From Candidatus Woesearchaeota archaeon (GTDB taxonomy: Archaea > Nanobdellota > Nanobdellia > Pacearchaeales > GW2011-AR1): DNA of 27,092 nucleotides. This document shows positions 1-8,261 of this stretch, in pieces. The stretch covers positions 1 through 27,092 of the forward strand of contig CAZHCL010000006.1 of NCBI GenBank assembly GCA_964530955.1. Direction: 5' to 3'. The notes beneath the pieces are model-generated. The model had not been told where the DNA came from. It ran no database searches and saw only the letters and a program-made list of their open reading frames with translations. Each line of letters begins with the position of its first letter. Position 1 is the stretch's first letter. Position numbers and translations under genes: made by a program.

Positions 1-143
1 AAGAGGATGTCTGAAAGATCAAACGTCCTCCCCTGGGAAAAAGAGGTGTACTAAATAATTGAGGTAATAAGGATATATAAACTTTTTGATTCCTTGAATA
101 GGTGCTGAAAGTTGTTGCGTACAGCAAATAATTTGTCGTCGAT

Positions 144-240
144 AAACAGCTGTTTGGGGTGTTTACTGGTAGACAAACAGGTGTTTAAAGTAGTAGATGA
201 AGGTGTTTGTCTTATCAAAAAGGTGTTTGTTGGGGTGTTT
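144..240. repeat. Cluster of AAACAG[G/C]TGTTT / GGTGTTT motifs in the intergenic region
   Basis: Perfect palindrome AAACAGCTGTTT at 144-155; AAACAGGTGTTT at 175-186; GGTGTTT cores start at 158, 180, 202, 222 and 234. Confidence 0.85.
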
Positions 241-296
241 AATGGTGCTAATCTCTTATGTTGTGATTTGCCTTTATAGCCCTTAAAACAGCAATA

Positions 297-304
297 TTTA
301 AATA
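297..304 (+). promoter_or_regulatory. Archaeal TATA box for 327..980 (probably leaderless)
   Basis: TTTAAATA ending 23 nt before the ATG at 327. Confidence 0.6.
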
Positions 305-326
305 CTATAAGAGTTGTAATGTTTTT

Positions 327-980
327 ATGTTTGAATGGTTATTCAAAAAGAAGGAAAAAAAGCTTGAGCAAAAAACTCAAGAAGGGTTTAATTCTGTAAA
401 AAAAGATATAGATGCAGTTGGAAAGTGGATTAAGTACTTGGATTCGAGAGACAAACAGGTGTTTGATCTTCTAAATGAGTTAAAAGGAGATTTAGCGTCG
501 ATACATGATGAGCTTGATGGACTTAGTGAGGCTGTGGGAATAGTCGGAGGGGGAAGAAAAAACAAACAGGTGTTTGAAAAAACAGGTGTTTTGGACAAAC
601 AAACAGCTGTAGAAGGTGTTGAAGAACCTGTTCAAACAGCTGTTCAAACAGCCAATTTTTATGATATTTTGAAGAGTTTTAGCGGAAATGAAAGATTGCT
701 TATTTTTACCCTTATGAACAGCGAAATGAAGCTAAGTTATGAGGATCTGGCCCTTCTTTTGGGAAAAGAGAAGTCTACCGTTAGGGGACAGATAAATACT
801 ATAAAACAGAAAAGTGAAGGTATTATTATGGAGATAAGTGAGAAAAATGGGAAAAAGAGAGTCTTTGTACCCTCTGAAATAAGAGAAAAACTGCTCAAAT
901 ACGCAAAAGTGAGAGTTGGGAATAACCGAAAAGTTCGTGTTAAACGTCAAAATACTGAAAATCCTGAGGAAAAGGTCTGA
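327..980 (+). CDS. Hypothetical protein: N-terminal coiled coil, low-complexity linker, C-terminal winged-helix DNA-binding domain
   Basis: 217-aa ORF. The C-terminal segment SGNERLLIFTLMNSEMKLSYEDLALLLGKEKSTVRGQINTIKQK...EKNGKKRVFV has a wHTH pattern. The N-terminus has heptad character. Confidence 0.7.
   Translation: MFEWLFKKKEKKLEQKTQEGFNSVKKDIDAVGKWIKYLDSRDKQVFDLLNELKGDLASIHDELDGLSEAVGIVGGGRKNKQVFEKTGVLDKQTAVEGVEEPVQTAVQTANFYDILKSFSGNERLLIFTLMNSEMKLSYEDLALLLGKEKSTVRGQINTIKQKSEGIIMEISEKNGKKRVFVPSEIREKLLKYAKVRVGNNRKVRVKRQNTENPEEKV
449..652. repeat. Intragenic copies of the AAACAG[G/C]TGTT motif
   Basis: AGACAAACAGGTGTTT at 449-464 is identical to 171-186. AAACAGGTGTTT at 564-575 and 580-591; AAACAGCTGT at 601-610; AAACAGCTGTT at 634-644; AAACAGC at 646-652. 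Confidence 0.85.
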
Positions 981-1035
981 AAAACAGAAAAGTGAGAGTT
1001 AGCTCTTGGGAAAAAAGGGAGATAAAAATAAAAAA

Positions 1036-1303: not shown

Positions 1304-2011
1304 CTAGATTTCTCTGAGCTGTATGATCGTCTGTAAAGAAGCTAATTGCTTGAACTCGGAAGGTATTGAAAGGAAGATTTTCTTGTTGTTTTCCTTGTTT
1401 TTCTGAATTGGAACTCCTTTTTTAATTATCTTTTGGATATAATCTCTTATTGAAGACTCTGAAAGCGAAAGTTTCTTTGCTATAAGAGGATAATCGACGA
1501 CAAAGCCTTCCTCCTGGAGCTGATAAAGTGTTGAAAAAACAAGCATTTCTTGATTGGTAAGTTTCTTAAATTTGCTTCTGATATCTTTCTTAATCGTGTC
1601 GAGAGATTTTAGAATCTCTGAGACTTGCTCAATCTGATCAATTCGGTCAGTTCTATTGGAAATGGGGGTGTGTTGGTTTGTTTGTTGGTTTGTTGGTTTG
1701 TTTGTTGGAACCCCATCATTTCCTATGGAAATACGATAAATATGAGGTTTTAAGGCTTTATAGGGCCAATTACCTGTTGGATTGTTGGATTGTTCGTCCT
1801 CATTTGTGTTTATTTCATGAATATCTGTTGGATTACTCTCAGACTGCTGTTTGTTGGTTTGTTTGTTTGTTTGTTGGGTAGATAGAACACTATTTATGGT
1901 TCGTTTAATTTCCTGCATTTCTGAAGAGATTGATAACATGCTGTCTTTTAATGATTCAATGTCTTGCTTTGCCCTAGAAAATGCCTCTTTTATAGGATCT
2001 TTTTTGTCCAT
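1304..2011 (-). CDS. Hypothetical protein: N-terminal coiled coil, Q/T/N-rich repeat linker, C-terminal winged-helix domain
   Basis: 235-aa ORF. wHTH-like LTNQEMLVFSTLYQLQEEGFVVDYPLIAKKLSLSESSIRDYIQKIIKKGVPIQKNKENNKKIFL; linker with QTNKQTNKQ / TNKPTNQQTNQ. Confidence 0.75.
   Translation of the reverse strand: MDKKDPIKEAFSRAKQDIESLKDSMLSISSEMQEIKRTINSVLSTQQTNKQTNKQQSESNPTDIHEINTNEDEQSNNPTGNWPYKALKPHIYRISIGNDGVPTNKPTNQQTNQHTPISNRTDRIDQIEQVSEILKSLDTIKKDIRSKFKKLTNQEMLVFSTLYQLQEEGFVVDYPLIAKKLSLSESSIRDYIQKIIKKGVPIQKNKENNKKIFLSIPSEFKQLASLQTIIQLREI
1671..1877. repeat. Intragenic TGTTGG / TGTT short-repeat tracts
   Basis: TGTTGG starts at 1671, 1683, 1691, 1703, 1775, 1783, 1826, 1852 and 1872, interspersed with TTTG tetramers. 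Confidence 0.8.
1711..1731 (-). promoter_or_regulatory. ORB-like (Orc1/Cdc6 origin recognition box) element inside a coding sequence
   Basis: Minus strand TTTCCATAGGAAATGATGGGG matches the oriC box at 6617-6637 (TTTCCATGGGAAACCATGGGG) at 18/21 positions. Confidence 0.6.
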
Positions 2012-2014
2012 TTA

Positions 2015-2347
2015 TTATTCTTGCTCGTCCAGATTATAAATATTGTTATGCTGAAGTTGATTTTTCATTTTCTCAGAGGATTGGGCTTTTGAGTATACTT
2101 CGAAAACTTGATTTGAAAGACGCCAACGTATTCTTTTTGAGTAGTCTTTGCCTTCCTTGTTCTTACTTATTGAAAGAACTAGCTTTTTCTTTTCTAATTC
2201 GAGAAGAAGTAACTTGGTGAATTCTTCATCTCTTGCAATTTCAGCCCCGATCTCTGATGTGAACTTAGATTCGGGAGAAATAGAGAAGAGATAGTGAAGT
2301 ATTTGTTCTGATATTTTATCTTTTTTCTTGTCGGATATTGTGGGCAT
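2015..2347 (-). CDS. Small winged-helix-like DNA-binding protein
   Basis: 110 aa. ISEQILHYLFSISPESKFTSEIGAEIARDEEFTKLLLLELEKKKLV...RIRWRLS has a wHTH pattern. Stop is 3 nt before the start of 1304..2011, so probably one operon. Minus-strand TTTAAATA at 2369-2376. Confidence 0.65.
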   Translation of the reverse strand: MPTISDKKKDKISEQILHYLFSISPESKFTSEIGAEIARDEEFTKLLLLELEKKKLVLSISKNKEGKDYSKRIRWRLSNQVFEVYSKAQSSEKMKNQLQHNNIYNLDEQE

Positions 2348-6247: not shown

Positions 6248-6508
6248 TTAGGCTAAGTCTTCTTCAGAAATAACGACAAAATCCCCTATTGCAATAATAG
6301 TATTGTAGGGAACAAGGACATCTCTTGAGGGAGAAACTTCGAGATTGAGGTTTCTTGTGTAGGGAGTAGGATCTTTGACAACAATTTGAATCAGCTCACC
6401 AGTTCTTGTCTCAAAAGTTATATCTTTAACTATTCCCAATCTTTTTCCCTCTTTTGTTACGACAAGCTTTCCAATTATTTCTTTTAATGGCTTTTTATCA
6501 AGAGTCAT
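6248..6508 (-). CDS. PRC-barrel domain protein (possibly CdpB-like)
   Basis: 86 aa; IIGKLVVTKEGKRLGIVKDITFETRTGEL...VPYNTIIAIGDFVVI is the PRC-barrel signature. Minus-strand TTTAAATA at 6530-6537. Confidence 0.85.
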   Translation of the reverse strand: MTLDKKPLKEIIGKLVVTKEGKRLGIVKDITFETRTGELIQIVVKDPTPYTRNLNLEVSPSRDVLVPYNTIIAIGDFVVISEEDLA

Positions 6509-6609
6509 AGTTGTTTGTAATATGATTCATATTTAAACTTTTCCATAATTCATCTTGCATGTTTTAATAAACAGTAATCTATTAGAAATAACTGTGAAAC
6601 GGGATTAAT

Positions 6610-6990
6610 ACCCTGTCCCCATGGTTTCCCATGGAAAAGAGAAAAGGTTTATAAACTAATCTGGATGTTTTTACTTTTATTTTTTATTTTTAAATATATA
6701 TATTATATATTATATATTATAAGATATATATTATAGTATGGTAGTTTAAGTTCTCTTTAATTTAAAAGATATTGAAATAATTTTTTAAGTTTTCCATGAG
6801 AAGAGAAGGTCTGAGGGGAGAGAAATTTTTTAAATTATATTAATTTGTTTTTTTTGATTAAAAAATTATTTAACGGTACTTTAATTTTTATATTGAGATT
6901 AGCGTCGATAAGATCAAAAGTTCGCTATTTCACAAATCAGAACAATATTAGTTTGAATTTTATGCTTTAGCTTTCCACAGGAAATAATGT
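6610..6990. other. Candidate chromosomal replication origin (oriC)
   Basis: Non-coding gap 6509-7052 directly upstream of cdc6. AT-only run about 6690-6737. ORB-like boxes at 6617-6637 (-, with GGGG), 6791-6818 (+, TTTCCATGAGAAG...TCTGAGGGG) and 6972-6989 (+, TTTCCACAGGAAATAATG). Confidence 0.8.
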
Positions 6991-7052
6991 TTATAGCATA
7001 GATAAGTTTATAATAAGAAACGTATTAAAATAAAAATAAAAAGAGAGGGAAG

Positions 7053-8261
7053 ATGGAAAAAGTAGATAAAATAGATGCAATCTTTAATTCGTTTGTCAGT
7101 AATAACTTATTTAAAAATAAATCCGTCCTTCAATCGAATTATAACCCTCAAAGTATAACTCACAGAGATGCACAAATAGAGTCTGTTGCTTCGATTCTCG
7201 CTCCTGCGCTAAGAGGAGAAAGGATAAGTAACCTTTTTCTTTACGGAAAAACTGGAACTGGCAAAACTCTATCAATACAACATGTGGGTGAGAAGATGAA
7301 TGTTCGTCTAAAGGAGATGGGTGAGGACTATCTTCGGTTTGTTTATGTGAATTGCAAGCTAAAAAAGGTGGCTGATACGGAGTATAGAATACTTGCGGAG
7401 ATAATTAGTGAGCTTGGGGGCAAAGTGCCTTCAACTGGGCTTCCAACTGACCAGGTTTATTCAAGATTTATTGACCTTATAGACCAGAAGAAGCAGATGA
7501 TTGTTCTTGTGCTTGATGAAATTGATCAGGCAGTGAAAAAAATATCTGACAACTTCATTTATTCTCTTACTAGACTAAATACTGAACTCAAAAATGCGCA
7601 GATAAGCATAATTGGAATAAGCAACAGTCTTACTTTTATGGATAATCTTGATCCAAGAGTAAGAAGCTCGCTTGGAGAAGAAGAAATAATTTTCCCGCCT
7701 TATAATGCTCTGCAATTGCAGGATATTTTAAAGGAAAGAGCAGACAATGCATTCAAAGATCAGGTTCTCGAGGAAGGAGTCATATCAAAATGTGCTGCGT
7801 ATGCTGCGAGAGAGCATGGAGATGCGAGGAGGGCTCTTGATCTCCTCAGGGTTGCGGGGGAAATTGCAGAAAGAGAGAATAGTAAGAACATAAAATTAGT
7901 ACATATAGATTCTGCAAACAATAAAATAGAAAGGGATAAAATGTTGGATATAATAGAAAGCGAGCCTAAACAATTTCAACTTGTGCTTCATTCAATATTT
8001 CTTCTTGAGAAGGGCAAAGAAGCTATCTTTACGGGAGAGGTTTACAATATGTACCAAGATGTATGCACCAAAACGAAAAATGAAGCCCTCACACAAAGAA
8101 GAGTTTCCGATATCCTTGCTGAATTTGATATGCTTGGATTGATTAACACTCATGTCATAAGCAAAGGAAGGCATGGACGGATGAGAGAGATAAAGCTCAT
8201 GCTTTCTCCAAATATAAGAGAAAAGGCGATAGAGATAATTGAGAAAGCAATATTCTCCTAG
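7053..8261 (+). CDS. cdc6: Orc1/Cdc6 replication initiation protein
   Basis: 402 aa; Walker A YGKTGTGKT, Walker B VLVLDEID, RVRSSL, GDARRALDLLR, C-terminal wH domain (ISKGRHGR). Upstream purine-rich GAGGG Shine-Dalgarno-like site. Confidence 0.95.
   Translation: MEKVDKIDAIFNSFVSNNLFKNKSVLQSNYNPQSITHRDAQIESVASILAPALRGERISNLFLYGKTGTGKTLSIQHVGEKMNVRLKEMGEDYLRFVYVNCKLKKVADTEYRILAEIISELGGKVPSTGLPTDQVYSRFIDLIDQKKQMIVLVLDEIDQAVKKISDNFIYSLTRLNTELKNAQISIIGISNSLTFMDNLDPRVRSSLGEEEIIFPPYNALQLQDILKERADNAFKDQVLEEGVISKCAAYAAREHGDARRALDLLRVAGEIAERENSKNIKLVHIDSANNKIERDKMLDIIESEPKQFQLVLHSIFLLEKGKEAIFTGEVYNMYQDVCTKTKNEALTQRRVSDILAEFDMLGLINTHVISKGRHGRMREIKLMLSPNIREKAIEIIEKAIFS

Follow-up and report, generated by a model that had tools for sequence, protein, structure and literature searches.

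Background

The described systems that come closest to the locus studied here combine repeated DNA sites with the gene of the protein that binds them. In the iteron and operator organisation of plasmid Rep proteins (pPS10, R6K and F type), repeats in the same orientation are set one or two helical turns apart and inverted repeats of the half-site lie at the gene of the binder. In the parS/ParB and type II parC/ParR (centromere-operator) systems, the sites, which are palindromes or repeats of 10-11 bp, are restricted to the neighbourhood of the origin, and in Bacillus subtilis parS lies inside spo0J. Here we describe an array of this general kind, made of the 12-bp palindrome AAACASSTGTTT and of GGTGTTT half-sites, that lies upstream of and inside a single protein-coding gene (hereafter gene A) of an archaeon. 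The stretch analysed, hereafter the window, comprises bases 1 to 27,092 of contig C6 in a genome assembly of 761 kb and 26 contigs (83% complete); the source is a DPANN archaeon with a reduced genome, and the close homologs of gene A carry the source names 'Candidatus Pacearchaeota' or 'Nanoarchaeota archaeon'. To our knowledge the organisation of origins and the segregation of chromosomes are uncharacterised in DPANN archaea, and nothing surfaced in literature searches on these two subjects.

Two further systems are relevant, one for its function and the other for the fold of its protein. RicO of Staphylococcus aureus recognises the ricS motif within the region proximal to the origin and tethers origins to the membrane by means of an amphipathic helix (bioRxiv 10.64898/2026.03.06.710092). 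The Lrs14 family of Sulfolobales, to which AbfR2 (PDB 6cmv) belongs, is described as a family of nucleoid-associated proteins (PMC11841832).

In this study we compare the locus with its counterparts in related genomes, all inference being comparative. We find that the array is unique in its genome, conserved in position, helically phased, under selection at the nucleotide level and co-varying with the lineage of the protein encoded by gene A. We read the AAACASSTGTTT palindromes and GGTGTTT half-sites as a predicted double-stranded DNA binding array of the gene A product that would serve autoregulation, a reading to which we give a probability of roughly 0.6, and we weigh it below against three others.

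Results

Sites upstream of and within gene A

An earlier note on this DNA, made from its letters, had pointed to five full copies of the palindrome and had suggested an iteron-, operator- or parS-like array. All five are present as exact AAACASSTGTTT 12-mers at 144, 175, 453, 564 and 580, where 0.01 copies would be expected by chance and none of 100 shuffled sequences reaches five. The partial copies that the note had mentioned lie at 217 (one mismatch), 601 (AAACAGCTGTAG), 634 (AAACAGCTGTTC) and 646, those at 217 and 634 coming from a search that allowed up to two mismatches and those at 601 and 646 being read directly from the sequence. The 16-bp duplicate agacaaacaggtgttt is exact at 171-186 and 449-464, and the GGTGTTT cores at 158, 180 and 202 do follow one another in 22-bp steps, with further cores at 222 and 234 upstream and at 458, 569 and 585 within the open reading frame (ORF). 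Eight of the 11 copies of GGTGTTT in the window, out of 64 in the genome, fall between 158 and 591.

The upstream array (144..240, plus strand) consists of the 12-mers at 144 and 175, the one-mismatch copy at 217 and the five half-sites at 158, 180, 202, 222 and 234, all in the same orientation on the plus strand. Downstream of it a TATA-like box, atatttaaatacta (292..305, plus strand), is read from the sequence about 25-35 nt before the ATG. Such a position implies a short or absent leader, so that, judging from archaeal promoter architecture, the upstream array is probably untranscribed. Inside the gene, the site 126 nt into the coding sequence (453..464, plus strand; +126 hereafter) reads AAACAGGTGTTT and encodes K43 Q44 V45 F46 in a long helix, and the linker-codon array (560..653, plus strand) holds the sites at 564, 580, 601, 634 and 646 in the frames KQVF and KTGV/QTAV. 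The frames are those that had been proposed, KQVF at 453 and 564, and KTGV at 580 and QTAV at 601 (as also at 634) in the +1 register. The use of two reading frames, together with the SST codon pattern described below, rules out a protein repeat as the cause of the motif, as the note had argued.

One array per genome

The note had seen no copies elsewhere in the window. There is no other AAACASSTGTTT 12-mer in the window, nor anywhere in the 26-contig genome, all 5 of the 5 genomic copies falling within window positions 144-591. Half-sites reach 9 per 200 bp at the array against a genome mean of 0.26, and a search for further arrays in the same genome found none, the best other 200-bp stretch holding 3 half-sites. 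The motif is therefore above background frequency and confined to one locus, and the same is true of relatives (G, C, L and f numbers are our handles for genomes, contigs, loci and families). In four of them the copies of the exact 12-mer at the gene A locus amount to 3 of 3 (G125), 5 of 5 (G181), 3 of 4 (G035) and 4-5 of 6 (G098), and with the relaxed core CAAACASSTGTY the corresponding counts in other families and orders are 3 of 4 (G044), 3 of 3 (G036), 4 of 5 (G007), 3 of 4 (G267) and 2 of 3 (G222). In each genome tested the motif is essentially confined to gene A. When arrays were sought in five f1 genomes without a detected gene A, just scattered single copies were found.

Conservation of position and helical phase

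Orthologous loci were aligned on the start codon as a close set of 29 (L007-L035, of which L035 is more divergent than the others) and a more distant set of 20 (L036-L055). The proteins of the 50 orthologous loci are 39-77% identical to that of gene A; the genomes are metagenome-assembled and related, and ortholog counts are not independent. The motif is kept at fixed positions across these 50 loci. The close set has the 12-mer at about -150 (and often a further one at -172), +126, +237, +253, +274 and +307, and GGTGTTT half-sites recur in the orthologs at about -168, -126, -105 and -95. In the f1 genera at greater distance the site at +126 is missing, the upstream and linker sites being retained. 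Family f8 has the flank variant GTCCAAACAGCTGTCC. Upstream and intragenic copies change together, as in G007, where about 40 identical bases are found at -105 and +245. Arrays stand upstream of the gene in families f1, f3, f8 and f9, and in families f4, f29 and f43 (f29 and f43 belonging to other orders) the motif occurs in the linker codons only, with no upstream array within 330-400 bp; the intragenic array is thus the most widely conserved part. One sub-clade (L028, L030 and L032; L025 has a shorter copy) carries a site in the interval from the TATA box to the ATG, which is where a repressor would sit.

The distances between half-sites on the same strand, taken over the 330 bp upstream of the 50 genes, peak at 10, 21, 32-33, 43, 53 and 64 bp, and the upstream [GC]TGTTT half-sites have a helical period of 10.6 bp. 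This periodicity points to a protein on one face of duplex DNA.

A second array, alike in motif and orientation, is present at two loci, at -700..-630 in L012 and at -640..-570 in L030 (relative to the start of gene A), about 500 bp further upstream and beyond a gene for a small membrane protein. Rfam and ARAGORN found no RNA gene or structured RNA in or near these second upstream arrays of the relatives. The window begins at a contig end, sequence more than 143 bp 5' of the first motif lying outside its view, so that a second upstream array would be hidden here.

Selection on the DNA rather than on the peptide

Whether the intragenic copies are kept for their DNA or for the peptide that they encode is settled by the codon alignment, which shows selection on the motif at the nucleotide level. 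In the 29 close orthologs the codons at +126 are AAA in 29, CAG in 29, CTG, GTG or TTG in 23, 4 and 2, and TTT in 29, while over the same genes CAG supplies 41% of Gln, CTG 9% of Leu and GTG 22% of Val; leucine at this site is written CTG in 23 of 25 cases against the 9% background. The Asp codons flanking the site switch freely between GAT and GAC, and neighbouring codons vary synonymously. In the linker the peptide VQTxVQT is written across the 50 loci as GTT CAA ACA SST GTT CAA ACA, the two threonines being ACA in 46 of 50 and 48 of 48 cases (44% background), and residue x is Ala, Pro, Gly or Arg through GCT, CCT, GGT or CGT in 48 of 50. Four chemically unrelated residues are tolerated at x, provided that the S-S-T of the DNA is kept. 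Over columns of conserved residues the commonest codon has a share of 0.94 in the motif and 0.74 elsewhere (Mann-Whitney p = 6e-5, a value that overstates independence, the sequences being related). The array overrides codon choice, and even amino-acid identity, in the linker. The intragenic cluster coincides with the part of the protein that is predicted to be disordered (residues 77-107, predicted local distance difference test (pLDDT) below 50), and the motif can be read in two frames because a disordered linker peptide is free to follow the DNA.

These data also bear on an explanation without any DNA-binding role, in which the repeats would be a slippage-prone 12-nt coding minisatellite or an mRNA element and the upstream copies would be leftovers of duplication. 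The linker unit GTTCAAACASST is in places a 12-nt tandem unit, the copies at 564-575 and 580-591 could pair around a GAAA loop, and the identical stretches shared by the upstream region and the coding sequence (16 bp here, about 40 bp in G007) resemble gene conversion. A minisatellite would not account for positions and irregular spacings (16, 21, 33 and 12 nt) that are fixed across genera at an invariant copy number, nor for the isolated site at +126, which lies in a structured helix and is written in invariant rare codons. The upstream sites, moreover, stand 5' of the TATA box, recur with the helical period that B-DNA has and are kept in 50 loci. The place and periodicity of these sites also led us to reject pairing of the self-complementary copies in RNA, as did the GG-centred copies, which would mismatch in RNA and are left uncompensated; Rfam likewise found nothing. 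We consider an explanation of this kind highly improbable.

The motif changes with the lineage of the protein

A family-profile search of the class recovered distant members of the gene A family (loci L061-L068). The arrays in front of these genes are lineage-specific, being repeats with a 10-11-bp period or palindromes 30-200 bp upstream of the gene, in other orders. G257 (L068) has seven CGTTATAACG palindromes at -200..-30 and G289 (L062) has CCGTCTACGA direct repeats with an 11-bp period; genome copies were counted for these two arrays, and 7 of 7 and 4 of 5 copies, respectively, fall at the locus. In front of the gene there are nine GGTCTATAGA-type 11-bp repeats in G273 (L064), TCTACGAA-type repeats in G304 (L065), GTCACTCACG-type repeats in G323 (L066), AACTTAACAATA repeats in G236 (L061) and CAGTTAAC/GTTAACTG repeats in G203 (L063).

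The type of motif changes with the lineage of the gene A family across at least seven lineages. All orthologs with the recognition helix ST[IV]RGQ[IV]N.IK.K keep the core AAACASSTGT, and G289 and G304, which have similar recognition helices (VRST[VL]SEY), have the core TCTACGA in common. The motif thus tracks the lineage of the protein, as would be expected if each protein bound its own array, and it is mainly for this reason that we consider putative self-binding by the gene A product likely.

The gene A protein

Gene A (327..980, plus strand) encodes a protein of 217 amino acids with a helix at residues 3-74, a disordered linker at 77-107 and a winged helix at 111-199. In an AlphaFold2 model built from a 49-sequence alignment (mean pLDDT 78.9) the helix is followed by the segment of pLDDT below 50 and by the winged helix, to which a C-terminal helix is added. 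The N-terminus, MF.W.FKKK, is conserved throughout the family. Pfam gave just a sub-threshold match to HVO_A0114. A profile search of the PDB matched a chain of Lrs14-like AbfR2 (6cmv, E 3.2e-5, profile positions 91-198), and Foldseek ranked the same structure first (E 2.7e-4), followed by MepR/MarR and SmtB/CadC, all of which are dimeric winged-helix DNA binders. The product had been guessed to be a winged helix-turn-helix protein of a dimeric type, and profile, model and Foldseek agree on a C-terminal winged helix of Lrs14/MarR/ArsR type.

Metagenomes contain more than 2000 close homologs of the protein, no function being known for any of them, and 149 clusters match it in a library of 1.84 billion representatives. 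A look-up in the ESM Atlas returned Nanobdellota clusters only, the family being confined to Nanobdellota/DPANN. Gene A is present as a single copy in 187 of the 201 genomes sampled from its order and is a near-universal single-copy core gene of strongly reduced genomes. A literature search on the family found nothing, and UBP/ucm of Sulfolobus (PMC12141716) proved a loose analogy only.

Linkage to the origin and other signals at the locus

The canonical oriC of the window (6510..7052), with ORB-like (origin recognition box) TTCCAnnGGAAA..GGGG boxes flanking an AT-rich tract, precedes orc1/cdc6 (7053..8261, plus strand), the single initiator gene, which is followed by PolD DP1 and DP2. A small minus-strand ORF at about 6250-6510 resembles a PRC-barrel-like 86-aa ORF that adjoins oriC in G125 (L053), and the true oriC intergenic region is for this reason shortened to about 6510-7052. 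No copy of AAACASSTGTTT or of GGTGTTT was found in oriC (6510-7052), and AAACASSTGTTT has no likeness to the aligned oriC boxes, whose consensus is the TTCCAnnGGAAA dyad with a G-string. Since the oriC with its ORB-like boxes is separate and free of the motif, the array is not an ORB-type origin.

Placed relative to oriC, gene A is origin-proximal. In all 91 genomes sampled with gene A and orc1/cdc6 on one contig, the two lie 2.2-15.9 kb apart (median 3.5 kb), and gene A is upstream of orc1/cdc6 in the same orientation in 90 of the 91. Where the genomes are most compact, the gap is filled almost wholly by the oriC region and genes B and C; that of G125 also contains two small ORFs. The linkage extends to two other orders (G222, 8.9 kb; G267, 6.2 kb). 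Besides genes B and C, the array has an Lhr helicase, a metallophosphoesterase, orc1 and PolD encoded in its neighbourhood.

Gene B (1304..2011, minus strand) is convergent with gene A and built like it, with an N-terminal segment, a Q/T/N linker and an HTH_11 winged helix, and gene C (2015..2347, minus strand) is small and weakly EarA-like (Pfam E 0.11); both are conserved in synteny with gene A. The linker codons of gene B contain, at window 1650-1690, an ORB-like box (TTCTATTGGAAATGGGGG) that can be aligned with the boxes of oriC at 6606-6645 and 6786-6825. This linker, rich in Q/T/N (window 1671-1877), is also encoded by CCAACAAAC-type repeats, grouped in two clusters; no copy of these was found in the region upstream of the gene B operon (2348-2449).

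Two further motifs overlap the gene A locus. A second palindrome, TTGTCGTCGATAA (133..145; consensus TTATCGWCGATAA), stands at the 5' edge of the array, and TTATCGWCGATAA is present in 28 of 50 orthologous upstream regions, mostly at about -183, where 0.013 would be expected. It recurs within gene A at +165 (about 491-503) as TTA-NCG-NCG-ATA, the rare NCG codons persisting through changes of the residue between S, A and T, and again inside gene B (about 1491); related copies are found in oriC (6903-6911) and at C7:35660, 75 nt upstream of a gyrB-like gene. The palindrome may be the site of a regulator of replication genes. A third motif, AAAGTGAGAGTT, lies in the gene A codons K-V-R-V (906..917, plus strand), with synonymous sites that are invariant in 27-29 orthologs, and has a second copy directly after the stop codon (989..1000, plus strand). 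Two of its three genomic copies are thus at the gene A locus. Nearly all of the 50 loci have it at +580, downstream of the stop or at both places, and the reverse complement, CTCTCACTTT, is met again upstream of distant members of the family from other orders.

A possible landmark near the origin

The position of gene A raises the possibility that its product and the array together would position, tether, segregate or organise the origin, or assist replication, in the manner of parS/ParB, ram/RacA or ricS/RicO, with MF.W.FKKK, which is aromatic and basic, as a candidate contact to a partner or to the membrane. This explanation overlaps with the operator reading in having the same binder, autoregulation becoming a side effect. 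For it speak the fixed place and direction of gene A relative to orc1/cdc6, the linkage of the two genes in two other orders as well, the array as the sole specific target in each genome, the presence of the gene as a single-copy core gene (187 of 201) in strongly reduced genomes, and the retention of the intragenic array even where the upstream array is missing. The locus also has an ORB-like box (in gene B) and the second palindrome, common to oriC and a gyrB promoter. Functional precedents are the parS site inside spo0J of B. subtilis and RicO/ricS (bioRxiv 10.64898/2026.03.06.710092). The linkage could, however, be inherited synteny of a replication gene cluster, and distant members are not all near orc1, the distance being 12 kb in G203 and the two genes lying on different contigs in G257 and G289. 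No ParA-, ParM- or TubZ-like partner was seen in the neighbourhood, the genome as a whole not having been searched, no ParB-type domain was found in gene A, and membrane binding by the N-terminus would be pure inference. We find a landmark role, whether as a centromere, a tether or a complex auxiliary to replication, doubtful; given the points in its favour and the other nucleotide-level signals that crowd the locus, we keep it as a serious, partly overlapping rival.

A possible different binder

The same neighbourhood suggests that the array might be bound by another protein, the product of gene B or C, Orc1/Cdc6, or a regulator of replication or the cell cycle, with gene A as mere target or carrier. 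Genes B and C are conserved in synteny, and other motifs at the locus are clearly those of other factors, namely the ORB-like box and TTATCGWCGATAA, the latter with copies in oriC and upstream of gyrB as well. Many half-sites have a G-rich lead-in (GGGGTGTTT) that bears a faint likeness to the ORB G-string adjoining TGTGTT in gene B. Such a binder is hard to reconcile with a motif that has no copy in oriC or elsewhere where Orc1 or a regulon factor would be expected to act, that is unlike the ORB consensus, that changes with the gene A lineage in at least seven lineages and whose core is constant wherever the recognition helix of gene A is constant. We regard a different binder as improbable.

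Discussion

Several properties of the array are those that an iteron-, operator- or parS-like element would have: direct repeats of one half-site are in helical phase, the sites lie at the gene's own promoter and co-vary with the candidate regulator, and palindromic sites are restricted to the origin-proximal region. We infer both the gene A product as the binder and autoregulation as the output. Autoregulation is the conservative reading, given that the sites bracket the promoter and that, in one sub-clade, one of them stands between TATA box and ATG; we propose for the array at minimum the function of an autoregulatory operator, to which that of a landmark near the origin may be added.

In the mechanism that we envisage, protomers of the gene A product, a coiled-coil plus winged-helix protein, would bind along one face of the upstream DNA (144-240), at the half-sites set in helical phase, and would also occupy the intragenic sites, at +126 and in the linker-coding cluster (560-653). 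The long helices would join the occupied sites into one higher-order complex that brackets the promoter, and this complex would feed back on transcription of gene A, through looping or through a block to elongation.

Some observations weigh against such an operator. Other conserved neighbours with a winged helix (genes B and C) could be the binders. The half-sites of the 12-bp palindrome are 6 bp apart, which is tighter than what we take to be the typical spacing in MarR-type dimer sites. Because f4, f29 and f43 have intragenic arrays only, classical promoter-operator control is not the universal function, and the overlap of at least two further conserved motifs with the locus suggests a multi-factor element rather than a simple operator. 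If its only specific sites are at the gene that encodes it, a regulator is hard to understand without some additional role of the protein or of the locus. Intragenic-only arrays, the gene itself as the sole specific target and a core gene beside oriC together suggest a further role.

Taken to its furthest, this further role would be that of a chromosomal landmark for the origin, formed by gene A and its array and the first of its kind in DPANN archaea, in which the protein would nucleate on the array and its conserved aromatic-basic N-terminus would hold or position the origin region at a membrane or at a partner; we consider this an unlikely proposition. If it were true, the system would be an archaeal equivalent of ParB/parS or RicO/ricS assembled from unrelated components, and the family at large, each member having an iteron array unique in its genome, would represent a class of single-locus DNA markers that had gone unrecognised.

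The locus also has interest of its own. Regulators appear to be few in such reduced genomes, and the array with the gene A product is a directly testable candidate protein-site pair for an uncultivated lineage. The linker is a clean natural example of a cis-element that dictates the sequence of a disordered protein segment in two reading frames, and the family-wide rule of private arrays offers about eight candidate orthogonal protein-site pairs for studies of specificity.

Comparison with known systems

In its layout the locus is formally closest to plasmid Rep iterons with their operator, and to centromere-operators such as parC/ParR. With the Rep systems it has in common same-orientation repeats at one or two helical turns, inverted repeats of the half-site at the gene of the binder, a winged-helix binder (here putative) and an array unique to the locus. 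It differs from them in the protein, which has a single Lrs14/MarR-like winged helix after a long helix in place of the WH1-WH2 Rep fold, and in having no adjacent unwinding element, the AT-rich element and the ORB boxes being at oriC, 6 kb away. Here, moreover, the sites extend into the coding sequence, and the gene is a chromosomal core gene rather than part of a plasmid.

The parS/ParB and parC/ParR systems resemble the locus in having palindromic or 10-11-bp repeated sites only near the origin, placed in or beside the gene of the presumed binder and doubling as its autoregulatory operator. Unlike their proteins, gene A has no ParB/Srx CTPase domain and no ribbon-helix-helix, and no gene for a partner NTPase was seen nearby, a genome-wide search for ParA not having been made. 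The intragenic ORB-like box of gene B is alike in being a DNA signal of the replication region frozen in a coding gene, silent sites included; the gene A motif has no relation to ORB, is arrayed instead of occurring as one box and is read in two frames, and its putative binder is probably not Orc1.

The Lrs14 family provides the best match in sequence profile and fold, covering about residues 100-199 of gene A, that is, the winged helix and the C-terminal helix. The similarity is weak (E 3e-5, 19% identity) and reaches into a different phylum. The chains of 6cmv, at 112-139 amino acids, are single-domain, whereas gene A, at 217, adds a 75-residue N-terminal helix and a 30-residue disordered linker, and the Lrs14 abstracts that our search listed describe no genome-unique arrays or intragenic sites. 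RicO/ricS is similar in that a specific motif is confined to the origin-proximal region and a short terminal helix would provide a second contact. It is a bacterial system with an unrelated domain order, ricS is spread over the origin region rather than packed in the gene of the binder, and the membrane contact, shown for RicO, is for gene A a guess. What distinguishes the present locus is that the array is embedded in, and dictates, the codons of the disordered linker of its own putative binder, together with the rule, seen across the family, of one private array per genome.

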